This document shows, in pieces, positions 25,563 through 42,265 of a stretch of DNA of 64,000 nucleotides. Within the stretch, counting starts at the first letter, position 1, and every line of letters starts with the position of its first letter. The stretch spans positions 521-64,520 of the forward strand of contig JBGTMQ010000021.1 in NCBI GenBank assembly GCA_041743505.1. The letters run 5' to 3'. Position numbers and translations under genes: made by a program. Origin of the DNA: Candidatus Saccharimonadia bacterium (GTDB lineage: Bacteria; Patescibacteriota; Saccharimonadia; UBA4664). The notes beneath the pieces were generated by a model. The model worked only from the letters and a program-made list of their open reading frames with translations. It did not search any database and was not told the origin of the DNA.

Positions 25563-26045
25563 GTGTTTAGCTTTTTGCATCGACATAAGCCGTCCCCTGC
25601 CGGTCTACTAACTTCGCAGCTATTTAATGACGCCACGTTCTATCCAGCCTTTGTCCACGACTTAAATCGATGCCGTATTGAGGCGATCATTGAGAGCCCG
25701 TTTATAACGACAAAACGCGCTGCTTTTCTTGCTCCTGTATTAATGAGTCTTAAGCGGCGCGGCGTTAGAGTAATTATTAACACCCGTGATCCCAATGAGC
25801 ACGAGACGCACATGCGTATTCAATCCCGAATGGCGGTCGAGGAGTTCCAGCAGGCAGGCGTTCAGGTTCTGTATACGGACAAACACCACAGGAAGCTGGC
25901 TATTCTGGATGGCGAAATTTTATGGGAGGGCAGCCTTAATATTCTCTCCCAAAATGACAGCTGCGAAGTTATGAGGAGGGTTGAGTCTGCAGGGCTAGCT
26001 ATGCAGATGCTACAGTTCGTGAAACTAGATAAATTCTTAAGATGA
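25563..26045 (+). CDS. phospholipase-D-like (HKD) nuclease, Nuc-like
   Basis: Single HKD motif: HRKLAILDGEILWEGSLNILSQND matches HxK(x)4D(x)6GSxN. GTG start. Confidence 0.65.
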   Translation: MFSFLHRHKPSPAGLLTSQLFNDATFYPAFVHDLNRCRIEAIIESPFITTKRAAFLAPVLMSLKRRGVRVIINTRDPNEHETHMRIQSRMAVEEFQQAGVQVLYTDKHHRKLAILDGEILWEGSLNILSQNDSCEVMRRVESAGLAMQMLQFVKLDKFLR

Positions 26046-27442: not shown

Positions 27443-27566
27443 GAGCTGATTATAGCATTCACGGCCAAAGTGCTTGTGCTAATTGTGTTAATATGTTCTG
27501 ATTTTGGTTTCAGATATGTTTGTGCTAATCTCTGAATATCAGCCGTTGCGCTGTGAGGAGGTCATT

Positions 27567-27908
27567 GTGAGAAAGTACGATGCAGCTAAATTTATGTCGG
27601 TATTCCTCATTATTGGGGTGCCATTTGTTTTAATACACCCGGCATTTGCCGCCGACGGCAGCGTTGGTCAAGTTGAGACCTTTATCCGTAGCATCATTAA
27701 GGTAGTAGCCGGTTTGGCTGGGCTTGTCGCAACCGGCTTTTTTGTTGTTGGCGGTTTCGGGTATATCACGAGTTCGGGCAACCCGGAACATCTCGACCGT
27801 TCAAAGCGCACTCTCTTATTCGCGGCCTTAGGTCTGGCAATTACAATTGGTGCTTTCGTTTTGAGTAACATCATCACGAGCTTAGCAACGAGCGCCTTCG
27901 GGAGTTAG
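27567..27908 (+). CDS. TrbC/VirB2-like conjugative pilin
   Basis: Signal peptide ending AFA-AD, two hydrophobic helices, and motif ...GGFGYITSSGNPEHLDRSKR. GTG start with GAGGAGG 5 nt upstream; ORF from 27504. Confidence 0.5.
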   Translation: MRKYDAAKFMSVFLIIGVPFVLIHPAFAADGSVGQVETFIRSIIKVVAGLAGLVATGFFVVGGFGYITSSGNPEHLDRSKRTLLFAALGLAITIGAFVLSNIITSLATSAFGS

Positions 27909-27909
27909 T

Positions 27910-29334
27910 ATGAGTTTTCTTGCGGCCGCTCCTTTTATGCTGCTGGCCGATGCGACTGCCGCATCCAATGTGATGCGGTCGTTTGTGACGCCGATGGTAA
28001 GTACTCTCATAGCGATTGCTTCAATTGCTGTGGTGTTCTTCTTGATAAACGGTGGCATACAATTTATGACAAGCTCGGGTAATCCTGAGCGGTTGGAGCA
28101 TGCCAAAAAGGTAATTCGAAACGCCCTTATCGGCCTAGTAATGGTTATTGCCGCGGGTACTTTAACGGCGATATTGAGTCATGCCTACACTAGCGCAGGG
28201 CCAGCTGCTACCGAGAAGCTTCCGCAGATGGTGACCATTCAGCCGGGACCTGCATCGAATGGGCTGGTGGAGGCCATGATTAATACGGTCATGGGCTTTC
28301 TCAAGGCTGTGATTGAGTCTGCGGCCAAGCCATTTCTGGATGCACTACATTTCTTTACTAGCTCAACACCCTCCATGGCCGAAAACTCTAGCGTCTTTAA
28401 TCTTTGGCTGACAGTGGTTGGCATTGCTGATGCGCTTTTTGTCTTGGCAGTAGCCTTGCTAGGCTTCCATGTGATGAGCTTTGCGACGTTTGGCCTTGAA
28501 GAGATCGAATTTAAGCATTTGCTGCCTAAGATTGCTCTAGTGTTCCTCCTTGTGAACACATCGATTTTTGCCATTGATGCGGTTATTGCAGTATCCAATG
28601 CAATGATTAGCGCCGTAAATGCCGGGGCTTCATCAAAGTCGGTTTGGGAGTCGCTGAGTGCAGTCGTCAGCCAACCGGAGACCATTGGACTGGCTGGACT
28701 GCTGGTCATGGTGGCCTTCGTGGTCTTGTCGGTCATACTCATTGTTTATTATGTGTTGCGCTTGGTGACGCTATACATCGGGGCGGCACTGTCCCCTATC
28801 GTTTTTCTGCTTTGGCTTCTGCCTGGGTTTAAGGATTTTGCCGAAACAACCGCTAGGACGTATTTCAGTACAATTTTTGTGCTTTTCATTCACGTTGTCA
28901 TCCTGCAGCTCGCGGCTTCCCTTGTTGGAGGCGTGGCGCTGGCGACTCCCGACCAGGCGCTTGATCCGCTTATGTCGATGATCGTAGGTATTGCCACGAT
29001 ACTTGCGCTCCTGAAGACACAAAGCGTTCTTATGCAGCTATCGTTTGTAAGTTTGGGGCCGAAGACAGCGGCCATGCTTGGCGGGCAGCTAAGCAACGCC
29101 ATTAGTTACTATTCCGGAAAATCGGGCAGGTCATCTGTCGATAGGGGTGCCGATGACGGACGGTACAGCGAGAAGTCCAAGCGCGGATCAACATCGACGG
29201 CGAACTACTCAAGTACGACTCGAACGGCGCCAGCTGCAGCGACACCACCACAGCGGGCCAAGCCAGATGGGGCGGCCTCGGGCTCACCGCATAAAACCAG
29301 AGTGGCACCTAGATCAAAGAAAGGAGGTACATAA
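27910..29334 (+). CDS. pilin-like N-terminal domain fused to VirB6/TrbL-like polytopic membrane protein
   Basis: Residues 1-95 are paralogous to the upstream pilin (FLINGGIQFMTSSGNPERLEHAKK), followed by 6 or more TM segments and an S/T/P-rich C-terminal tail. Confidence 0.5.
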   Translation: MSFLAAAPFMLLADATAASNVMRSFVTPMVSTLIAIASIAVVFFLINGGIQFMTSSGNPERLEHAKKVIRNALIGLVMVIAAGTLTAILSHAYTSAGPAATEKLPQMVTIQPGPASNGLVEAMINTVMGFLKAVIESAAKPFLDALHFFTSSTPSMAENSSVFNLWLTVVGIADALFVLAVALLGFHVMSFATFGLEEIEFKHLLPKIALVFLLVNTSIFAIDAVIAVSNAMISAVNAGASSKSVWESLSAVVSQPETIGLAGLLVMVAFVVLSVILIVYYVLRLVTLYIGAALSPIVFLLWLLPGFKDFAETTARTYFSTIFVLFIHVVILQLAASLVGGVALATPDQALDPLMSMIVGIATILALLKTQSVLMQLSFVSLGPKTAAMLGGQLSNAISYYSGKSGRSSVDRGADDGRYSEKSKRGSTSTANYSSTTRTAPAAATPPQRAKPDGAASGSPHKTRVAPRSKKGGT

Positions 29335-29846
29335 TGAAAACGGCAATTGTTCCGGCACAGATCACGACTGTTGAGGATAAAGTCGCGGGGAACCTAGGCC
29401 TTTCTCAGCTACTGCTGTTGGCTGCGCCGGTGTTCATCGGGGGTGCTGTCTATATTATCCTTCCGCCAAGCCTCGGCGCGGCACTCTATAAACTCGTCGT
29501 CGTGACGATCATTAGCTTAGTCTTTGGCTTATTGGCTATTAGGATTAAGGGCCGCATCCTGCTGTTTTGGGCGATTACGATTGCGCGATACAACTTACGG
29601 CCGCGGCATTATGTATTCGACAAGAATGACATGCATCTGCGGTACAAGAGCGAGAAAGGCGTCGAGGCGCATACCACGGCAGATCAAGCGCAGAATCCCA
29701 AGGCGGCGAACCATAAGGTAGCCCCAGGTTTGAGTACCACAGACACCGTGATGCTTGAGGGAATTATTGCCAATCCTGAGGCAAAATTGCATTTTATAAC
29801 CGACCGGAAAGGGGGCTTGAGTGTCCGCATTACAGAAGTCAAATAA
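29334..29846 (+). CDS. PrgI/VirB3-like small membrane protein
   Basis: 170 aa with two TM helices, immediately upstream of VirB4. Start overlaps the previous stop (TAATG). Confidence 0.45.
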   Translation: MKTAIVPAQITTVEDKVAGNLGLSQLLLLAAPVFIGGAVYIILPPSLGAALYKLVVVTIISLVFGLLAIRIKGRILLFWAITIARYNLRPRHYVFDKNDMHLRYKSEKGVEAHTTADQAQNPKAANHKVAPGLSTTDTVMLEGIIANPEAKLHFITDRKGGLSVRITEVK

Positions 29847-30435
29847 GAAACAGTCCTCACGTCAGCAGATCAATATCAAGGGCGTGCAAGACGGAGTCTT
29901 GATGCTGCCAGGCGATCAGTACCGGGTTATTCTCGAAGCTTCGGCCATAAACTTTGAACTTAAGAGTGACGATGAGCAGGATGCGATTATTGAGGCTTAC
30001 CAAAGCTTTCTCAACTCCCTGTCATGTCCGGTGCAGATTCTGGCACGGATTCGCGAGATGGATATGCAGCAATATCTCGATAATTTCCGGCAGGCTTCAG
30101 CTCAGGAGAAGGAGCCGATCTATCGTGATCAGATCAACAACTATGCTGAATTCGTTCAGAGCCTCGTTAACACGAATAAGATTCTTTCCCGCCGCTTCTA
30201 CGTGGTTATTCCGCACACCGACTATTACGGCGACGGTTTTGAGGCCGTTCACGAGCAGCTGCTACTGAACAGCGATATTGTTGGCAAAGGCCTGAGCCGG
30301 CTTGGCATTCAGACGCGCCAGCTTAGCAGCCTGGAGGTTCTCGATCTCTTTTACACCTTTTACAATCCTCAGCAGGCCAAGCGGCAGCCCATCACTGAGC
30401 AGACTCTGCGGCTACTTAAAGATTCTTACCTATAG
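29821..30435 (+). CDS. VirB4/TraE-family ATPase, N-terminal domain fragment (ends at in-frame TAG)
   Basis: Same frame as the downstream ATPase ORF. Sequence resembles the N-terminus of Gram-positive VirB4 homologues. Confidence 0.55.
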   Translation: MSALQKSNKKQSSRQQINIKGVQDGVLMLPGDQYRVILEASAINFELKSDDEQDAIIEAYQSFLNSLSCPVQILARIREMDMQQYLDNFRQASAQEKEPIYRDQINNYAEFVQSLVNTNKILSRRFYVVIPHTDYYGDGFEAVHEQLLLNSDIVGKGLSRLGIQTRQLSSLEVLDLFYTFYNPQQAKRQPITEQTLRLLKDSYL

Positions 30436-30441
30436 GAGCAT

Positions 30442-32178
30442 TTGATGGAATTCTGGGAACAAATTACTGCATGGAAGAAGCGCCGCGATGAGCGGCCAAA
30501 AGAATTGGCTCTTAGTTTTGGTGAGCAGGACCCGATGGATATTATTTCGTACGCCGGAATGGAGGAGCAGGTAGACCATCTGTGCATCGACGGCCAGTTT
30601 ATGCGGACGCTGTATATCTCCGGCTATCCGTTTGTGGCAGCCTCGGGCTGGCTCAATAGTCTGGTAAATTTTAATCACAATGCGGACATTTCGTACCACC
30701 TGACAGCGGTTAACGCGACGCAATCCCTGCCAAAACTAAACCGCAAAATCACCGAGCTAGAATCAACAAAAAGAGCGATGGTTCGCAACGGCAAGATTGT
30801 CGGCCCCGAGGTTACAGACCCGCTAGAGTCTGCAACTGAACTGCGCAATAAGATTTTGCGAGGGCAGGAAAAGCTATTCCAGGTTTCGATTTATGTAGCT
30901 CTGACCTCCGAAACGCTGGCTGAGCTGAACAGCGTTACGAAGATGCTAGAAACCGAGTTGTCGTCGCGGTTGTTTTACACCAAAGTTGCACGATATCAGC
31001 AAGTCGAGGCATTACAGTCGGTGCTGCCGCGAAGCGAGAATATCCTGGACCAAAAGCGGAACCTAGACAGCTCGTCGGCGGCTCTGACATTTCCACTGAT
31101 GTCGTCCGAGCTGGTGCAGGAATCTGGTATCCTCTACGGGGTCAACAAGTCCAACAACTCTCTGGTGATCCTCGATCGCTTTAGCCTAAATAACGCCAAT
31201 AGCATCGTGTTTGCTCAGTCGGGCAGCGGTAAGAGCTACGCGACGAAAGTCGAGATTCTGAGGCAGTTAATGCAAGGCACAAGGGTCATCGTGATCGATC
31301 CGGAGCGAGAATATAAACTGCTGGCCGAATCCGTGAATGGTTCGTACATCAAGCTTTCAGCTAACTCCAGAGAAAAGATTAACCCGTTCGACTTGGCAAC
31401 AACGGCCCGCTCGAAAGAGCATCTGTCCGAGCATGTGCAGGATTTGACGGAAGTCATTTCGCTCATGGCAGATGGGCTTGATTCCAGCGAGGCGGCGGCG
31501 GTCGATAAGGCGATTCTTAAAATTTATCACGAGGCTGGCGACGAGATGCCGCTGCTTCGTGACCTCTACGCAGAGCTGCGAAAGCTCGGTCACTTAACAC
31601 TGTGCGAGCGGCTTGAGAAGTATATCAGCGGCTCATTGGCCGGCGTCTTTAACGAGCAGACTAATATTAAGCTCGACAACCGGCTGGTGGTGTTCGATAT
31701 CAAGGACATGCCCGAATCGCTGCGCCAGATTATGATGATGATTATTTCCAGCTTCGTGCAGAATGAGGTAAAGGTACACCCGCAGAAGCGCATGCTAATT
31801 ATTGATGAGGGCTGGCTGCTTCTGGAACACGAGCAAAGCGCCCGATTTGTAACGGGCCTGGTGCGACGTGCTCGAAAATATTACCTGGGCGTTTCGATCA
31901 TCTCGCAGCAGGCTAACGACTTTTTGCGAAGTGACTACGGCCGGGCAATAGCCTCGCAAAGCAGTTTGCGAATTCTAATGCGCCAGGATACGACGACCAT
32001 CAAAAACGTGGCAATGGAGTTCAATTTGAGCGAGTGGGAGGAGAGCTTCTTGCTCACTTGCGAGAGGGGCGACGCACTGATTATCGCAGACCAGAACCAT
32101 GTTGCTGTTAAAGTTGTGGCCTCTAGTAAAGAGCACCCTCTCATTACTACAAACCCGACAGAGCTATACCAGCCATGA
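30442..32178 (+). CDS. VirB4/TrbE/TraE-family conjugation ATPase, C-terminal ATPase domain
   Basis: Walker A AQSGSGKS, Walker B MLIIDEGW. ATG 30445 preceded by AGGAG. Confidence 0.8.
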   Translation: MMEFWEQITAWKKRRDERPKELALSFGEQDPMDIISYAGMEEQVDHLCIDGQFMRTLYISGYPFVAASGWLNSLVNFNHNADISYHLTAVNATQSLPKLNRKITELESTKRAMVRNGKIVGPEVTDPLESATELRNKILRGQEKLFQVSIYVALTSETLAELNSVTKMLETELSSRLFYTKVARYQQVEALQSVLPRSENILDQKRNLDSSSAALTFPLMSSELVQESGILYGVNKSNNSLVILDRFSLNNANSIVFAQSGSGKSYATKVEILRQLMQGTRVIVIDPEREYKLLAESVNGSYIKLSANSREKINPFDLATTARSKEHLSEHVQDLTEVISLMADGLDSSEAAAVDKAILKIYHEAGDEMPLLRDLYAELRKLGHLTLCERLEKYISGSLAGVFNEQTNIKLDNRLVVFDIKDMPESLRQIMMMIISSFVQNEVKVHPQKRMLIIDEGWLLLEHEQSARFVTGLVRRARKYYLGVSIISQQANDFLRSDYGRAIASQSSLRILMRQDTTTIKNVAMEFNLSEWEESFLLTCERGDALIIADQNHVAVKVVASSKEHPLITTNPTELYQP

Positions 32179-32672
32179 AGCCGCTACTGATGCTGGGCGC
32201 AGTGTCATTCAAAAAAGAGATTGCGATCGTGCTTGTTTCATTGGGTGTGATCGTGTCTCTGCCGGTTGTCGCGCTCGCGTCCGTTGTGGATGTGGGGCAA
32301 ATGAAGGACCCGGAGGTCAAGCTCTATACCGGGCCAGTCTCGACAACGAACACCTACGTTTTCGGTCATTGCACATACTGGGTTGCAATACGGCGCGAAC
32401 AAACAGGCACTCCCATTCCGAACAATTGGGGCCACGCGAAAACATGGGCTAGTAACGCGATTAGCCAAGGCTATAAGGTCGACCATGTCCCGGTTGTGGG
32501 GTCAATCATGCAAACGACGGCAGGGCTATTCGGTCATGTGGCATATGTTGAGAGCGTAAACACAGCCGATCGCAGCTGGACTATTTCTGAAATGAACTTT
32601 GTAGGGTGGGATGTGATGAGCAACCGCACCTTGCCCGCGAAAGCAGCGCTTGATTATAACTTTATTCACTAG
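32175..32672 (+). CDS. CHAP-domain peptidoglycan hydrolase (VirB1-like function)
   Basis: Signal/TM N-terminus. Cys...His CHAP motifs (GHCTYWV...GHVAYVE). ATGA overlap with VirB4 stop. Confidence 0.6.
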   Translation: MKPLLMLGAVSFKKEIAIVLVSLGVIVSLPVVALASVVDVGQMKDPEVKLYTGPVSTTNTYVFGHCTYWVAIRREQTGTPIPNNWGHAKTWASNAISQGYKVDHVPVVGSIMQTTAGLFGHVAYVESVNTADRSWTISEMNFVGWDVMSNRTLPAKAALDYNFIH

Positions 32673-32680
32673 GGGCTGAG

Positions 32681-35287
32681 ATGGAGACTATCACCGAGTA
32701 TTCGCTAGACATCCTATCCTCACTGCTGCCTGTGGTAGTAGTCTTCCTCGTGGTGATTCTGCTCATAGGGCTCGCCGTAGCGGTATTATTCCGCATCTTG
32801 ACCCTCCGTCGTCTATTCCGGCAAAAGTGGGTATTTTTAGAGCTTACGCCCCCAGCACAGACTGATAAATCACCGGAGGCTACTCAGCAATTATTCTCGG
32901 TTTTGCATGGATTGGACTCGGTACGCTCGCATAAAGATACCCTCCTACGGCGAAAGGAAGTATTCTCGCTTGAGGTTGTCTCGACCCGAGAGCAAGGCAT
33001 CCGCTACATAATCCGAGTTTCGGAGCATGAGGCGCCAATATTCGAGCAGACAATTGCCTCATATCTGCCGGAAGTCCGCCACAGGCGTATTAAGGATTTT
33101 CTGCCGGAGTCGTTTAGAAGCGGCGCCGTTCGTGTGCTCGATTTTAAACAGATGGGTCACTTCGCCTATCCATTACAAAAACAATGGTCGCTCAATGAGC
33201 ACGACCCTATCGCCTACCTAACCGGTACTATGACCAAGCTCGCAGCTAACGAAATGGTCGTGTTCCAGATTGTCGCTTCACCTACCAGAGTCCGCGAGGC
33301 AGAAGCAATTGCGGGGCGCATTCTCAACAATGCCGAATTGCTGCACAGGCTTGGTAAGCGGGGGCTGCCCGGCATTGGCGGCCTGTTTGCGGCTATCAAC
33401 TTAGTACTGTTTGGCACCCTGGAATCCATTAGTGAGCTTTCCCGTAGTTCACCGACACATGCGGGTCAGACCGGTGGCCGCGATGTCCAGCGTGAGCGTG
33501 ATGTGGCGATGAGAATCAAGCCGGCACGTACGCTGAGCGCTTTTGAGCAGCAGTTGGCCGAATCGGTGCATGACAAGGTGAGTCAGCCTCTTTTTCGGAC
33601 CAATATACGCGCATTGGTAGTAACGGCGAGCCCCCAAAACCGGGCGCAGAGACTTAAGGGCATACAGGCCTCGCTCATGTCCTTGAGCCTGCCCAAGTAC
33701 CAGTCGCTTAAGGCGCGTTATGACTTTCCATATTTCATCAGGGGTAGATTGAACACCTTTGCATTCCTCAGCCGCCTGCCGTCCCCGCTGCCGCTCAAAT
33801 CGGTTTTGCTTTCTGCGTCTGAAGTTGCCAATATATATCACTTCCCTTTTAGCCTAACGGCTAAGACCGAGAACGTAGTGCGGTCACTTAGCCGGACGCT
33901 TCCGGCACCTATTTCACTCAAGGGCAAGGCTGAGTTCGACGTCGTCTTGGGTCGGAATCATCATCACGGCACTACTACCGATATCGGCCTGACTGCCGCC
34001 GAACGCGAGCGCCATGTTTACGTGCTCGGAGGCACCGGCAACGGTAAGACTACGATGCTCGAGTATTCAATTGTTCAGGACATTCAGAGCGGCAAAGGCG
34101 TTGCCGTTGTCGATCCACACGGTGATCTAGCGGAGAAACTTTTGCGCTTTATCCCCGAGAACCGCATCAAGGACGTCATTTACTTTAATCCGGCGGATTT
34201 AAAGTATCCGGTTGGGCTGAACTTGCTTGAGCTACCGGAAGGTTTGTCCGGCGACGAGCTTATCGACGCCAAAGACTTTATAACTGAGGCAATTATTTCA
34301 ATAATGCGAAAGATTTTCTCGGATGACGATACGGGCGGACACCGCATTGAGTATGTTTTGCGAAATACGGTGCAAACGGCACTAACAGTGAAAGATGCGA
34401 CCCTGTTCACCGTTTTCGACTTGCTGACCGATTCGAAGTACCGAAAGAAGATTGTTAAAACACTCGAAGATGAGAAATTAAAGAACTTCTGGAAGGAGGA
34501 AGTCGGCAAAGCCGGCGATTTCCAGCGTGTTAAGATGTCGGCTGGCGTGACGGCCAAGATTGGGCGGTTCCAGTTCTCGGCCTCCGCAGAGCGCATCTTG
34601 AGCCAGCCAAAGTCTACAATTAATTTCGAAGAAATACTCGACGGCAAAATTCTGATCTGCAATTTCGCCAAGGGGTTGATCGGCGAAGACACCTCCGAGC
34701 TGTTTGGTATTAGCACGCTAGCAAAGCTGCAGCTGGCGGCATACCGTAGAGTGAAGCAGAAGCGAGCAGACCGGAAACCGTTCTATCTCTACGTGGACGA
34801 GTTTCAAAACTTTGCCACGATGTCTTTTGTGCAGATGCTGTCTGAGGCACGAAAATATAGAGTCTTCTTGACGATGGCCGAGCAGTCCACATCCCAGCAG
34901 GACGACCAGCGCATGGTTAATACGATCTTAGCTAATGTTGGGACAGTTGTTTGTTTTCGGTCGGGGAGCCCGGCCGACGAGCAGCTTATCCTTCCCCTCT
35001 TTTCGCCCTATATCCAAGAGGGCGAGATCGCCAACCTTGCTACCTATAATTTCTACGCGCGGATATCGGCCGTGTTGTCTCAAGAGCCTGTTTCGGGCGA
35101 GACGCTATTGCTGGAGAACTCCGGCAGCGAAATGATCGCACAATCGGCCATTAGCGCGTCGCGCGCAAATTATGCCCGGCAGCACAAACCAACTGTTAAT
35201 GTGACGGACGCTAGGCCCGCCACGACAAAGCGAAAACCAAAAAAGCCCATTGCCGCGAGCCAGACCACGGCTCTACCAGGAGACTAG
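32681..35287 (+). CDS. type IV coupling protein (VirD4/TraG/TcpA-like ATPase)
   Basis: N-terminal TM segments. Walker A VLGGTGNGKTT, Walker B YLYVDEFQNF. 868 aa. Confidence 0.7.
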   Translation: METITEYSLDILSSLLPVVVVFLVVILLIGLAVAVLFRILTLRRLFRQKWVFLELTPPAQTDKSPEATQQLFSVLHGLDSVRSHKDTLLRRKEVFSLEVVSTREQGIRYIIRVSEHEAPIFEQTIASYLPEVRHRRIKDFLPESFRSGAVRVLDFKQMGHFAYPLQKQWSLNEHDPIAYLTGTMTKLAANEMVVFQIVASPTRVREAEAIAGRILNNAELLHRLGKRGLPGIGGLFAAINLVLFGTLESISELSRSSPTHAGQTGGRDVQRERDVAMRIKPARTLSAFEQQLAESVHDKVSQPLFRTNIRALVVTASPQNRAQRLKGIQASLMSLSLPKYQSLKARYDFPYFIRGRLNTFAFLSRLPSPLPLKSVLLSASEVANIYHFPFSLTAKTENVVRSLSRTLPAPISLKGKAEFDVVLGRNHHHGTTTDIGLTAAERERHVYVLGGTGNGKTTMLEYSIVQDIQSGKGVAVVDPHGDLAEKLLRFIPENRIKDVIYFNPADLKYPVGLNLLELPEGLSGDELIDAKDFITEAIISIMRKIFSDDDTGGHRIEYVLRNTVQTALTVKDATLFTVFDLLTDSKYRKKIVKTLEDEKLKNFWKEEVGKAGDFQRVKMSAGVTAKIGRFQFSASAERILSQPKSTINFEEILDGKILICNFAKGLIGEDTSELFGISTLAKLQLAAYRRVKQKRADRKPFYLYVDEFQNFATMSFVQMLSEARKYRVFLTMAEQSTSQQDDQRMVNTILANVGTVVCFRSGSPADEQLILPLFSPYIQEGEIANLATYNFYARISAVLSQEPVSGETLLLENSGSEMIAQSAISASRANYARQHKPTVNVTDARPATTKRKPKKPIAASQTTALPGD

Positions 35288-35372: not shown

Positions 35373-36731
35373 TTACTGACCCGCCTGTATCGATCCACGA
35401 GCAAATGCCTCAAGGATCCTTTTGCTCGGGAAATCGGAGAGCGATATGAGGCGGTTAGCTAAAGCAACAGGGATCAATGCGTTATCGTACATTGAACATC
35501 GCAGCTCACCAAGAACGGAAAGAACGCTCGTAAGATTGTGGAAGTCTGCATACGATGGGTTCGGTGAGTATTTACTCATCGGAACAGTCGCCACATAAAC
35601 ATTACCGTCTTTAGCTTTGTATATAAACTTTCCTCCCCAGTAAGTGTTGCTACCGTAAGCATCGGGGCCCTTAGGATCACCCGGCACAATGTATTTATAG
35701 ATATATTCGTTAGACAGAAGCAAGACCGAGCCTGGTCGCATTTGACCCTCGATTAGCATAGCGTGTTCAACGAATGGCCCACTCTTTTCTAGGCCCGCCG
35801 CGTTGAGAAGAGGAGGCTCACTCGGCTGGTTCTCTTGGACTCCTAAGAATTCAGCCAACTCCCGCATGGGCTTCGACAATGGCGCCGTCTGACCAAAGAA
35901 GGCCAATGGGCCGTCTTTGATAAATAATACCTCCCGCAGAAGGCTAGGCTTAAGCTCCCACAATGTCTTGATGAGGTGCACTAGCACAATCTGCTCTAGC
36001 ATTGTCATTACATAGCTGGTGATACCACCCGCTCCCTGCTCTTCATCTATTCGTTCATGCAACCGCAGGGCGTCCACAAGATAGATCGGCGCTCCGCAAG
36101 TTGTACAGGCTTGTTCGTCGGGCGAGTCATTTGAGAGCACAATATATGTCCGCGTACAGCCGACATTCGGACAGGACGGTATATCCCAGGTTTTGGCGCC
36201 GTCTGGTTTCCAGCCTCTAAATAAAATCCATCTTAATGCTTCAGATAAGGGCTTCTCTTCATCTTGGGCCTTTGTGAAGAAATCATGCAGGCTTGAGCGT
36301 ACGGAGTCGATGAGTGATTGACTAGCACGGGAAATGTTTTTAGTCGGGAGTACAAGCGTATAGCGCTGGATATTTTTAAGCTTTGCTAAATCCTCAGGGG
36401 CAATGAACGGCTGATTATCGAGTTCACGTAATTCCTCAAGCTTAAAAAGCAAGGGACCGAAAGCAAAAAAGGTTATTACGGATGATGGAAATTCGTTCCG
36501 GACAGCGGCCTCCCTATAGCTTCCATCAACAGCAACAACTGCTTTGATTTTCTGATCCTCGACCTCTGGTACATCCTGTATAAGAGCTTCTAGGACGGAT
36601 TTTTCTGCTGCTTTTGGCACCGTGCAGCCGTCCAGAAATGCTTGAACGGTTGGGTTATTAATAATATTGCTATGGGATATTTTGCTCGCCCTCTCCATGG
36701 GCTTGCGCCCTTTGGCGCTACCATATGCCAT
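35373..36731 (-). CDS. NurA-like nuclease with inserted C4 zinc ribbon
   Basis: NurA motif KAVVAVDGSYRE. CPNVGC...CTTCG ribbon. ATG overlaps the HerA stop (TAATG). Confidence 0.55.
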   Translation of the reverse strand: MAYGSAKGRKPMERASKISHSNIINNPTVQAFLDGCTVPKAAEKSVLEALIQDVPEVEDQKIKAVVAVDGSYREAAVRNEFPSSVITFFAFGPLLFKLEELRELDNQPFIAPEDLAKLKNIQRYTLVLPTKNISRASQSLIDSVRSSLHDFFTKAQDEEKPLSEALRWILFRGWKPDGAKTWDIPSCPNVGCTRTYIVLSNDSPDEQACTTCGAPIYLVDALRLHERIDEEQGAGGITSYVMTMLEQIVLVHLIKTLWELKPSLLREVLFIKDGPLAFFGQTAPLSKPMRELAEFLGVQENQPSEPPLLNAAGLEKSGPFVEHAMLIEGQMRPGSVLLLSNEYIYKYIVPGDPKGPDAYGSNTYWGGKFIYKAKDGNVYVATVPMSKYSPNPSYADFHNLTSVLSVLGELRCSMYDNALIPVALANRLISLSDFPSKRILEAFARGSIQAGQ

Positions 36732-38698
36732 TAAACGGCCTCGGCTTGTGCTTCACTTTTTGGAGCTTCGGCCACAATAACCTTAAATTGATCCACTTGT
36801 ATCGGGACGATGAAGGTATTCGAGTCAGTTTTAAGCCGGATAAAGCCTCGATCGGTTGTTCGGCGGAGGCTGTCGGTGAAGTCTTCAAAGTCGTAATACT
36901 TATTGAGCTCACGAAGTTCATCTTGGTTGTTGAGATGAGAAACGAACCAGTTCTGAGTGTTTTTGAGAATACTTCCGGAAATAGAGCTGACTTCCTGGGT
37001 CGCATAGCACAGGCCAAGTCGTAGCTTCTGGCCTTCTTTCGCTAGGCGGTTATAGATATTGGTGAGATCTTTTTCTTCTTTACGCGGGAAAAGGTTGTGC
37101 GCTTCTTCAAAATACATTTGTATGAAGTTTGCGGGTTCGTTATCGATGAACCTCTTCATGGCTTCGCCGAAGATCTTTTTACATACACGGTCGGAGTATA
37201 CCCGTTGTATGTGCGGATCACCCTGTGAAAGATCTATAAGAACGATTTTGCCGGATCGCAAAAGTTCCACTATCTCGTCCTCAAAGGATTCTCCAATGGT
37301 GGCCGTGTGGAGGTCACGCCCTTTAATAAATTTTCTATACCCGCTTTCGCTTGAGTTTGCACCCGGCCTGGATTTTCGAGTAAGAAACCGCATCAAGGTT
37401 TGAAGATCTTCTTCGGCCCATTCGCGTCCGCCCTTCGACTTCTTCAGTGCCTGGAATGGACCGCCCGAGTCAGCGTAATTGTCCCATGCGGCGCTAAACC
37501 AAGCGGCTGCATCGTCTAGGCTTAAGCCCGACTTGGGCTCGACTCCTTTCAGGCCGGGAATCTCTGACTCTCTGATCTCTTTGGCGGAATCGAAATACAC
37601 TTTTTCATCGGTCTGAGCAAAGCCCGCCTTGAATAGACACGCCTTGTATGCCGCAATTTTCCGTTTATATTTAATCGTCGCCCCAACGTCTTCGTTGTCC
37701 GGCTCTTCCCAGTCTATGTTCAAGAAAGCCTTAACGTAATCGGCGGTGTCGTCAGCAAGTAGAGTGGAGAGCAAACCGAACCCATCTGTTACCGACTTAT
37801 AAAAGTTCAGTTTCATTACCTTGAAGCCTGTTTTTTCCATAACACTGTAGCGGGTTACTTCGTTTGGGTACTGCTGGAAAATCGCCGTGCCGTCGTCCTG
37901 CTGGTTGGTATTTGCGTACTCGCCATTTATGTCGAAAACAATTTGGCCTACGGGCTTCACGGGGGCGCCATTCATCGGAGCGCCCGAATTTGATATGCCC
38001 ACAGTCGCCTGGATAATCTTTTTTACGGAGTTGGATTTTCCAGTTCGGGTCATTCCAAATAGTGCAGTTCTTTTACCGAGGAAATCGATTGGAGTGACAA
38101 ATACTGGCACATCTTCGCCGGAAAGGTGTCGCTGGCTTGAACTATAGCGAATTTTGCCAATCCGCTCGTCGCCTTTACCGCCTGGTATTCCCTGCTCTCT
38201 GAAGTTGACGATGTATTCGAGCAACTTACCCGTTGGCTTGATCACCTCATAGCTATTAGGGGCGTAAAAGTTATCCAAATCTCCAGCGAATTTTACATCA
38301 CCAGCGTCATTGCGGTAAAAAGAGCCGATAACCCGACATTCCAACCCCGAATACTGAAACTCTGCGCGGGTGTAGGAATCGAGCTGAGAGCCGGCGGATT
38401 GTTCCTTGTAATGGTCAACCATTGCGGCAACAACGTCATCGTCCGTAGGGAGACGCGTAGGACGAAGGACACGAACTAAGATCGCTTCATCTATCCCGTC
38501 TTCAGCGGTGTACCGGCAGAGTAGAAAAGCTCCCGCAGGGACACCGCTAACTTTTCGTTTCCAGCTATCGTTTGACAGGAGTTTCAGTGTGTTGAAGTCG
38601 AGATAGAATGGGCGCCCGACAAATGCATCTTGTTTTTTGGCCTCAGCGAATAAGTCCACCGTGGCTAGTTGTTTGAGTTCTTCGATTACAGAAGCCAC
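36731..38698 (-). CDS. HerA/FtsK-like ATPase (DUF87-type)
   Basis: Walker A LFGMTRTGKSN, Walker B KIVLIDLSQGD, C-terminal QEVSSISGSILKNTQNWFVSHL typical of HerA. 655 aa. Confidence 0.65.
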   Translation of the reverse strand: MASVIEELKQLATVDLFAEAKKQDAFVGRPFYLDFNTLKLLSNDSWKRKVSGVPAGAFLLCRYTAEDGIDEAILVRVLRPTRLPTDDDVVAAMVDHYKEQSAGSQLDSYTRAEFQYSGLECRVIGSFYRNDAGDVKFAGDLDNFYAPNSYEVIKPTGKLLEYIVNFREQGIPGGKGDERIGKIRYSSSQRHLSGEDVPVFVTPIDFLGKRTALFGMTRTGKSNSVKKIIQATVGISNSGAPMNGAPVKPVGQIVFDINGEYANTNQQDDGTAIFQQYPNEVTRYSVMEKTGFKVMKLNFYKSVTDGFGLLSTLLADDTADYVKAFLNIDWEEPDNEDVGATIKYKRKIAAYKACLFKAGFAQTDEKVYFDSAKEIRESEIPGLKGVEPKSGLSLDDAAAWFSAAWDNYADSGGPFQALKKSKGGREWAEEDLQTLMRFLTRKSRPGANSSESGYRKFIKGRDLHTATIGESFEDEIVELLRSGKIVLIDLSQGDPHIQRVYSDRVCKKIFGEAMKRFIDNEPANFIQMYFEEAHNLFPRKEEKDLTNIYNRLAKEGQKLRLGLCYATQEVSSISGSILKNTQNWFVSHLNNQDELRELNKYYDFEDFTDSLRRTTDRGFIRLKTDSNTFIVPIQVDQFKVIVAEAPKSEAQAEAV

Positions 38699-38713
38699 AC
38701 TGCGGCCCTTTGT

Positions 38714-39934
38714 TTAGTTTCTGAGGCTGGGCTTGTCCCAATCGAGGGTAATCGCTTCCGGAATGCTCACTTTGTGTGGGCTCATTAACAGAAGCCGATC
38801 AGTCTTTGTGGCTCGTCCAATATTATTCTTCCAAATGCGGCTAACTTTGACGCCAAGCGGCAACTCATCGGCAATAATACTATGAAGATACCACCCTTGA
38901 GGCTCGGCCGCTAGTTCCCAAACGGCTTTGGCAAGGTTAATATGTTCATCGTTGCGTCGAACATCTCCAATAACCAAGCAGACATAGCCATCATCAGCCA
39001 CAACTTCGCGCATTTGTAGCAAGAATGCGCTCATGAATTCGATGTAACGAGCCATGGAGCTACTTGCCATAAGGGTATCATCAACGGCCTTTGCCTCTTG
39101 GCCCAGAAGCCACAGCCGTACCCAGTTATATTTTCCATATTTTATAACCTCTAGGTACGGGGGGGAGGTTAATACCAATTTAACTTTCTCTTTGCGCAGC
39201 CAGGCGGGCGCAATGGCCGTGGCGTCTTGCTGCCAGCTCTTACCTCCGTGAATGGGCCGCTCAGGTAAATCAAATCTCTGGATTTTCAATCGCAGCATTT
39301 CAAAAACATTGACTTCAGGTTGAGTTAATCCGTGCTCCGATATATAGCGCCTAACATACGCTGGCGACATCGCGAACGTATTCGGCATACTTATGGAAAA
39401 GCCTCGCGCCTCACCGCTTTTAGTGTGGTTAGCATGCATCGTACCAAGTGCAGAGGCGAGTATGAAATTATCTACAAAGCTATTTACATTGAGCTCCGAT
39501 TTCATGAAGACGAGTTGGCGTAGGGTGTCGGCGCTATAAAGCATTGCGATATCCGGTGGCGTGTTAGAAATATCGACAGTAGCGTCTTTAAGTATGCTGA
39601 TTAAATTATCTAGCCGTTGGTTTAGTTGTTTTTGTGATGGAATATCAAGCTTTGCTTTCGTCAGTACTGTCGCCATCGGGTTTAGGTCACTCGCATAAGC
39701 TTTTCGGTCTAACATTATTGCTTCTAGCGCCGATGTCCCACGTCCCGAAAACGGGTCGTAAATTGTTTCGCCCTGGGATGTTAGCCAAGCAATAAGGTAA
39801 TGCGCTAACTGCGGTGGGAACATGGCGAAATAACTGCACATACTGTGTAATGGGTGGCCCCAGCGCCTTGGTACCACCCGCCAATTCATCGGAATGGCGT
39901 CTAGCGATACTTTTGACTCCAAAATTGTGCTCAT
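38714..39934 (-). CDS. DNA methyltransferase (N6-adenine/N4-cytosine type, SPPY motif)
   Basis: AdoMet motif I DPFSGRGTS and catalytic motif IV TSPPY (LVLTSPPYLEV) with an intervening target-recognition region. Confidence 0.7.
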   Translation of the reverse strand: MSTILESKVSLDAIPMNWRVVPRRWGHPLHSMCSYFAMFPPQLAHYLIAWLTSQGETIYDPFSGRGTSALEAIMLDRKAYASDLNPMATVLTKAKLDIPSQKQLNQRLDNLISILKDATVDISNTPPDIAMLYSADTLRQLVFMKSELNVNSFVDNFILASALGTMHANHTKSGEARGFSISMPNTFAMSPAYVRRYISEHGLTQPEVNVFEMLRLKIQRFDLPERPIHGGKSWQQDATAIAPAWLRKEKVKLVLTSPPYLEVIKYGKYNWVRLWLLGQEAKAVDDTLMASSSMARYIEFMSAFLLQMREVVADDGYVCLVIGDVRRNDEHINLAKAVWELAAEPQGWYLHSIIADELPLGVKVSRIWKNNIGRATKTDRLLLMSPHKVSIPEAITLDWDKPSLRN

Positions 39935-41026: not shown

Positions 41027-42265
41027 TTAGAGGTTCGCGCTAGCCTTGGTTTCAACGCCCGAAATTGATAGTAAATATTGGCGATCCTTCGTAAGACTCG
41101 ACTGCAAAAGTGCGAAACCTACCTTCCCGAATTCTGAGATAAGTTCGAGGGCCGTCATATGCCAAACACGGAGCAACAAAATTGTTGCACCTTTCTCAAG
41201 ATCAACCGTGCGTTCAGCCTTGCCAAAATCAAACTTGATAGTTATGGCGGATCTAAGCCTCACGCGGATGTAACGCATCCCTTGAACCGAGTCAAAGCCC
41301 ATCTCGACATCGTATAGCGACTCATCAATATTCATGAGTCCTAGAATATATTGGTGGCTCGGCGATAGCTTGTTCAGACCTGAGGTCGAATTGAAGTCGA
41401 AATATCTGCGTGCCGCTTCAGTGTCAGGCTTATCGGTGTACATAAGCAAATCGTTATCGCTCATGCTTCCATATACTGGCTTGAGCACATCGTTAAACGA
41501 TCTGAAATTAACAGGCGTGCCGCCGAGCAAGAGGATGAGATTGGTCGTCTCCCTCGCATCATCGTCTAACATGTCGTCTACTAAGAGATCGTCGAAGCGC
41601 TCGTAAGAAATGTCGCGCACATATCCCTCAAAATTGACCTTATCGCCGTACCATTCTATAAGGTTGCGCTTCGCCACTGAGATCATGGAGGGACTTATAT
41701 CGATTGCGATATACCTATGAAGAATCTGTTTATCAATGAGATGCCCCAGTAACTCCTTGATGGGGTACGCGTTGCCCACGCCAAGATCGATAACATTGAC
41801 CCTTTTACTCCCCTCAAGTAGCTTATCAATTGCCGCCATATTTGAGCGGATAAGTTCAACTGTACCTTTAAGGATATTGGACGACTCTTCTTGCGCTAGT
41901 CTTTTGAGCCAATTATCCCAATTGATCGCACCGTCTTTCAGATAATTGTACTGACGCGGAATCTCCCCGTGGACATTGAGGCTTGTGATAATATCTAAAA
42001 TTTGGCGGCGGCTGTATATGTCGTAGAACTCAGGCTTCGGTCGAATTATCTTATGATAAAGCGTATTTCGGTACTTCTTGCCCTTTTCAGACAGCTGTTT
42101 GAGAACCAGTATATTCTCGGGCGTATTTGCTATATAGGTACGGTTGTCCGTCTTGTGTAGCTTCAACGCTACCTTGCCCTGTTTCGCTGCATCTATCCAG
42201 TTATGAACTGTTTTTAAGGAAACATGGTAAATGTCAGTCAATTCGGAATGTTTAAAGTGTTGCAT
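41027..42265 (-). CDS. HTH domain fused to EgtD-like (histidine N-alpha-methyltransferase family) SAM-dependent methyltransferase
   Basis: N-terminal HTH (ELTDIYHVSLKTVHNWI), then VIDLGVGNAYPIKELL...YIAIDISPSMISVAKRNL resembling the ELGSGxxxKTxxLL...Y.P.DIS... pattern of EgtD-family enzymes. Confidence 0.5.
   Translation of the reverse strand: MQHFKHSELTDIYHVSLKTVHNWIDAAKQGKVALKLHKTDNRTYIANTPENILVLKQLSEKGKKYRNTLYHKIIRPKPEFYDIYSRRQILDIITSLNVHGEIPRQYNYLKDGAINWDNWLKRLAQEESSNILKGTVELIRSNMAAIDKLLEGSKRVNVIDLGVGNAYPIKELLGHLIDKQILHRYIAIDISPSMISVAKRNLIEWYGDKVNFEGYVRDISYERFDDLLVDDMLDDDARETTNLILLLGGTPVNFRSFNDVLKPVYGSMSDNDLLMYTDKPDTEAARRYFDFNSTSGLNKLSPSHQYILGLMNIDESLYDVEMGFDSVQGMRYIRVRLRSAITIKFDFGKAERTVDLEKGATILLLRVWHMTALELISEFGKVGFALLQSSLTKDRQYLLSISGVETKASANL

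Follow-up and report, generated by a model that had tools for sequence, protein, structure and literature searches.

A probable two-polypeptide VirB4 at an ordinary gene boundary in a type IV secretion operon of a Saccharimonadia genome

Single-chain VirB4 ATPases of monoderm-type type IV secretion systems (T4SS), such as those of the CD1110 and Mbov_0397 families, consist of one polypeptide. In the Staphylococcus aureus plasmids pSK41 and pGO1 (MPF_FATA, pGO1 subclass), trsD, which encodes 227 amino acids (aa), lies right upstream of a shortened VirB4-like gene, trsE (672 aa). TrsD has been described as remotely homologous to the VirB4 N-terminus (Quinonero-Coronel et al., 2025, Microb Genom, PMC12102498); that study credits the likeness to Guglielmini et al. 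(2014), and the word TrsD is absent from the main text of the latter. The 2025 study counts 2,272 TrsD homologues in Patescibacteria, of which 1,664 are associated with VirB4, and lists the homologue of Southlakia epibionticum ML1 as essential. T4SS genes were reported to be essential for epibiotic growth (Wang et al., 2023, PMC10633639). We analyzed a TrsD-like gene and a VirB4-type ATPase gene that are separated by a single in-frame TAG in 64,000 nucleotides (nt) of Candidatus Saccharimonadia bacterium (GenBank assembly GCA_041743505.1, contig JBGTMQ010000021.1, positions 521 to 64,520), a stretch referred to here as the window. The sequence comparisons make it very probable that this site is the normal boundary of two genes in a monoderm-type T4SS operon, which would encode a genuine two-polypeptide VirB4.

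The junction reads ...GAT TCT TAC CTA TAG GAG CAT TTG ATG GAA..., with GAG CAT TTG as the sole codons between the TAG that terminates the upstream open reading frame (ORF) and the ATG at 30445. Both ORFs are in one reading frame (29821, 30442 and 30445 all leave a remainder of 1 on division by 3). Delimited mechanically, the downstream ORF spans 30442-32178 and begins at a TTG. The true start of the ATPase gene is likely the ATG at 30445 and not the TTG at 30442, because the ATG has the correct Shine-Dalgarno (SD) spacing and the same start was called independently in the Logan assembly, giving 577 aa. The features of the two genes and their junction are the following.

29821-30435, forward strand: gene for a TrsD-like protein, probably equivalent to a detached VirB4 N-terminal domain, 204 aa, GTG start and TAG stop (NCBIfam, PF26593, BLASTP and homologue lengths)
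30433-30435, forward strand: TAG stop of the TrsD-like gene, very probably an ordinary gene end (sequence; TGA, TAA or TAG at the same boundary in relatives)
30434-30438, forward strand: SD sequence AGGAG of the ATPase gene, overlapping the stop and placed 6 nt before the ATG
30445-32178, forward strand: VirB4-type ATPase gene, 577 aa, without the first ~190 positions of a single-chain VirB4 (NCBIfam conju_CD1110; Pfam P-loop_TraG, AAA_10 and DUF87)
31219-31236, forward strand: Walker A motif SGSGKS, ATPase residues 259-264 (sequence motif)
31795-31812, forward strand: Walker B motif LIIDEG, ATPase residues 451-456 (sequence motif)

A preliminary description of this site had given the coordinates, the shared frame, the TAG and the AGGAG with an ATG 6 nt further on, and all of these were confirmed in the sequence.

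The two proteins were colinear with single-chain VirB4 proteins. The 204-aa protein partially matched positions 11-172 of the 752-position CD1110 VirB4 profile of NCBIfam (E = 3.1e-11), and the 577-aa ATPase matched positions 191-733 (NF045971, conju_CD1110, E = 9.1e-103). With 344.9 bits, the product of 30445-32178 passed the curated cut-off of 325 for this VirB4 family. Both of its Walker motifs are intact, and Pfam matches to PrgI, TrbL (weak), CHAP, pilin and VirD4-like families lie alongside. P0210, a single-chain VirB4 of 781 aa, aligned with both window proteins in BLASTP: residues 12-186 with the 204-aa protein (31% identity, E = 1e-34) and residues 235-777 with the ATPase (41% identity, E = 2e-152). 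Its cluster is syntenic with that of the window, containing a pilin, a TrbL-like VirB6, a 155-aa ORF in the PrgI position (no Pfam match), VirB4, an M23 hydrolase and a VirD4-like gene. The 204-aa protein also aligned with positions 10-200 of the 201-position TrsD model NF041427 (E = 1.5e-07), the name of which also covers TraD proteins, and the databases' precomputed annotation lists Pfam PF26593 (TraC-like) for the exact protein. The window therefore has the arrangement of the TrsD type, that is, a stand-alone protein of about 200-230 aa encoded right upstream of an ATPase that is without its N-terminal ~200 residues. It shares the taxon and the parts (VirB2-like pilin, VirB6, PrgI/VirB3, TrsD and VirB4) of the pairs described in Patescibacteria, in which the TrsD homologue likewise adjoins virB4, and nothing essential differs (PMC12102498). 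The split arrangement is in this sense already known; it is real but ordinary.

The split was found in every relative examined. The 120 best homologues of the 204-aa protein, ranging from 100% down to 64% identity, were without exception stand-alone proteins of 194-209 aa; their sources were named as Saccharibacteria or Saccharimonadales proteins, some as "TraC family protein". The C-terminus ...(E/D)SYL was kept in most aligned homologues. An exhaustive search of representatives of 50%-identity clusters returned 2,340 relatives, and among the best 150 of these nearly all were short, the proteins of VirB4 length (700-900 aa) being P0167 (734 aa), P0210 and P0242 (898 aa); P0209 (3,922 aa, 20 matched stretches) was left out. 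Many of the more distant relatives (P0151-P0270) were 220-470 aa long with two matched stretches, the first of which ended near query residue 132, a pattern that suggests an insertion or an extra domain in other lineages.

For the junction itself we retrieved 80 loci from genomes that represent GTDB species, of which 77 together with the window gave 78 analyzable junctions. These genomes are nearly all labelled Saccharibacteria or Patescibacteria, the related loci coming from Saccharibacteria/Saccharimonadales metagenome-assembled genomes (MAGs). In 78/78 junctions the ATPase gene was a separate ORF straight after the TrsD-like gene, so that orthologues are not uniformly single-chain, and the counterpart of the first ~200 residues of single-chain VirB4 proteins is a separate gene product in the window and in the 77 related genomes. 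The junctions comprised ATGA/GTGA 4-nt overlaps (46), 8-nt overlaps (10), TAATG (6), spacers of 0-11 nt (11) and longer overlaps (5), and 1-, 4- or 8-nt overlaps together accounted for 62/78. The 9-nt spacer of the window, with a TAG overlapping the SD sequence, is thus a minority type, whereas most relatives have an ATGA overlap. An SD-like motif preceded the ATPase start in 75/78 junctions. Of the "perfectly placed" restart site proposed earlier, the SD sequence is accordingly beyond chance, but the shared frame, found in 5/78 junctions, is not. In one Saccharimonadales MAG (L026, 4001-4873) the TrsD-like ORF is without the usual stop and continues for another 264 nt, so that it overlaps the ATPase gene out of frame; an indel or assembly error in that genome could account for this, or the long overlap is genuine.

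Programmed amber read-through or recoding would join the two ORFs into a VirB4 of ~785 aa, either invariably or as a minor isoform under regulation. The window ORFs are in frame with three sense codons from the TAG to the ATG, and the junctions of L001, L002, L042 and L073 are in frame likewise. However, the other 73/78 junctions were out of frame (offset +2 in 55 and +1 in 18), mostly as ATGA overlaps, which makes a fused product impossible in most relatives. The stop codon also differed, with TGA in 46, TAA in 23 and TAG in 9 of the 78, so that neither the frame nor the identity of the stop was conserved as expected of a recoding site. Within the window's own clade, the TrsD-like gene of each of the five nearest relatives (L001-L005) ends in a TAG that overlaps an SD sequence (AGGAG; AGGAA in L004), and the spacer is short, yet the distance from the stop to the ATG differs and the frame offsets are 0, 0, 2, 2 and 1. 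Because distance and offset vary even among these relatives, the shared frame is coincidence and without function, and a read-through product is not a conserved gene product. TAG is not avoided in the window either; it is the commonest stop, ending 25 of 62 ORFs (TAA 23, TGA 14). A scan for suppressor tRNAs found none within the window, where the sole tRNAs are tRNA-Lys(CTT) and tRNA-Arg(TCG), so that nothing in the window indicated a reassigned or suppressed TAG. We consider read-through very improbable and reject it as an explanation of the site. To speak of an in-frame TAG that interrupts VirB4, as the preliminary description did, is misleading, since the boundary is old and fixed and the frame is shared by coincidence.

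The possibility that the stop is an artifact of sequencing or assembly, and that virB4 is really single-chain here, is favored by nothing but the shared frame. The identical junction was present in the Logan assembly of run SRR28170471. It recurred in L001, another MAG (94% protein identity) in which synonymous sites approach saturation relative to the window, and a stop stood at the boundary in 78/78 junctions. An error of this kind can be set aside as having a negligible probability. The comparison with L001 also gave the ratios of nonsynonymous to synonymous substitution rates (dN/dS), which were 0.019 for the N-terminal gene and 0.027 for the C-terminal gene at a synonymous rate (dS) of about 0.9-1.2. 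Judged by these rates, purifying selection on both halves is strong. A recent nonsense mutation, and with it an incipient pseudogenization of the T4SS, was suggested in the preliminary description and is scarcely credible: no support for it was found, and against it stand the low dN/dS values, the 204-aa length and conserved C-terminus of the N-terminal proteins down to about 55% identity, the intact Walker motifs, the finding of no further lesions in the operon by the window ORFs and the Pfam scan, and the reported essentiality of T4SS genes, including a TrsD homologue, in a cultivated saccharibacterium (PMC12102498; PMC10633639).

The genuine two-polypeptide VirB4, one of the explanations offered at the outset, is strongly supported by the split in every relative examined and by the purifying selection on both halves. 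According to this explanation, the TrsD-like protein and the ATPase would be synthesized as separate polypeptides, the product of 29821-30435 corresponding to the first ~190 residues of a single-chain VirB4 and the product of 30445-32178 supplying the remainder, including the ATPase domain with Walker A and B. Both polypeptides would then join into a VirB4-like subunit that is anchored via PrgI/VirB3. The ATPase gene would be read from its own AGGAG and the ATG at 30445. Ribosomes that end the TrsD-like gene would probably re-engage at the ATPase start, because stop and start are 9 nt apart. This gap and the overlap of the AGGAG with the stop have the geometry of translational coupling, and the pair is probably coupled, which would favor roughly equal amounts of both halves.

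Several results weigh against this explanation or against one of its steps. The 204-aa protein scored 31.5 bits against NF041427, far under the cut-off of 200, and a Pfam scan of it gave no family at E <= 0.01. Its AlphaFold model was of moderate confidence (mean predicted local distance difference test score, pLDDT, of 65). In a Foldseek search against the PDB the six top matches were all R388 TrwK/VirB4 but weak, with a best E of 4.9e-03 and a query-normalized TM-score of 0.47; for the modeled fold, these matches would be weakly consistent with a VirB4 N-terminal domain. Re-initiation and independent SD-led initiation would look alike in sequence, which bears on the coupling step. A trace of natural read-through of the in-frame TAG at this site is also possible at a low level, and nothing suggests that it would be important. 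No significant match was obtained when the profile of the N-terminal protein alignment was searched against the sequences of the PDB; the best hit (E = 0.013) was a hypothetical protein unrelated to it. For the NF041427 score, the comparisons suggest that membership fails for a narrow model of the staphylococcal type while homology of the 204-aa protein is supported, both by the BLASTP alignment with P0210 and by the CD1110 profile match.

The arrangement in pSK41 was compared with that of the window at the level of the break point. Residue 27 of the window ATPase aligned with residue 31 of TrsE onward (BLASTP, E = 1e-37), and because of this the two ATPases begin at an equivalent position. 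The profile of the window N-terminal protein aligned with pSK41 TrsD with an hhalign probability of 88.9% (E = 2.4e-06). The gene order was similar, with a small upstream ORF (annotated as hypothetical), TrsD, the ATPase and, further on, a CHAP hydrolase. However, the similarity is remote, TrsE sharing 23% identity with the window ATPase and the TrsD score of the window lying far under the NCBIfam cut-off, and the spacer between trsD and trsE is 14 nt, in contrast to 9 nt in the window. pSK41 is also a conjugative plasmid with relaxase genes, while no relaxase turned up among the scanned window ORFs, which did not amount to a full search. The match of the break point between Saccharibacteria and staphylococcal TrsD/TrsE, as aligned here, is modestly new.

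This matching break point hints at a single ancient fission. A more specific proposal is that VirB4 was split once, deep in the monoderm (MPF_FATA) lineage, and that the detached N-terminal domain became a distinct essential subunit whose separate expression is functional. It fits the observation that VirB4 is broken at equivalent points in Saccharibacteria and in staphylococcal plasmids of the pSK41/pGO1 type, and we regard it as a tentative and rather unlikely possibility. If it were true, separate expression might serve, for example, variable stoichiometry or an ordered assembly on PrgI/VirB3, as opposed to a neutral split in a domain linker, and P0210-like single chains in syntenic clusters would be either ancestral holdovers or secondary re-fusions.

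For annotation, the ordinary two-gene boundary implies that an ORF of about 200 aa before a short virB4 in Patescibacteria, Saccharibacteria included, should not be taken as a sign of gene disruption, pseudogenization or recoding, even if it is in frame. A motor of two polypeptides is also relevant to structural and genetic work, as the T4SS is reported to be essential for the growth of epibionts on their hosts.

The remaining genes of the cluster were as follows.

27504-27908, forward strand: VirB2/TrbC-type T4SS pilin gene, 134 aa (Pfam TrbC 3.6e-09, T4SS_pilin 2.9e-08)
27910-29334, forward strand: gene for a VirB6/TrbL-like membrane protein with a pilin-like N-terminal segment, 474 aa (Pfam T4SS_pilin 9.9e-08; TrbL 0.001, under the Pfam cut-off)
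29334-29846, forward strand: PrgI/VirB3-like gene, 170 aa, overlapping the next gene by 26 nt (Pfam PrgI 7.8e-08, over the cut-off)
32175-32672, forward strand: gene for a CHAP-domain cell-wall hydrolase with a VirB1/TrsG-like role (Pfam CHAP 1.1e-15), the start of which overlaps the ATPase stop as ATGA
32681-35287, forward strand: gene for a VirD4-like coupling-protein ATPase, 868 aa (Pfam TrwB_AAD_bind 2.4e-07, T4SS-DNA_transf 3.2e-07, TraG-D_C 3.5e-06)

The predicted gene content of the neighborhood is that of a monoderm-type type IV secretion operon. Other junctions in it are tight as well, with TAATG at 29332-29336 between the VirB6-like and PrgI genes and ATGA at 32175-32178 between the ATPase and CHAP genes. 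At the junction of the CHAP and VirD4-like genes, TAGGGGctgagATG (32670-32683), the stop again overlaps an SD sequence, here between two unrelated genes, and a stop overlapping an SD sequence thus recurs within the operon (30433-30438 and 32670-32683).

The VirD4-like gene follows directly after the CHAP gene, and its matches to TrwB_AAD_bind, T4SS-DNA_transf and TraG-D_C are weak, with DUF8128 at the N-terminus. It is an addition relative to the described patescibacterial systems, in which such a gene is reported as uncommon near virB4 (merely 148 of 5,713 patescibacterial type IV coupling protein homologues; PMC12102498). The Southlakia T4SS cluster was described as having no recognizable coupling protein (Wang et al., 2023, PMC10633639). 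A divergent N-terminal half may conceal VirD4-like genes from standard profiles.

Directly downstream of the operon, on the reverse strand at 35373-39934, lie three consecutive genes for a NurA-domain protein of 451 aa, a HerA/DUF87 ATPase of 654 aa and an N6/N4 DNA methylase of 405 aa, which could be a repair or defense module. A gene of the Methyltransf_33 family is located about 6 kb from the T4SS (41027-42265, reverse strand), and a member of this Pfam family also borders the T4SS cluster of P0210 (L083, 1-351), so that its linkage with the T4SS may be conserved. The G+C content is 0.44-0.51 over ~18000-42000, which includes the T4SS operon and its neighbors, against 0.53-0.59 in the flanks, and a PLD-like nuclease gene lies inside the low-G+C stretch at 25563-26045.

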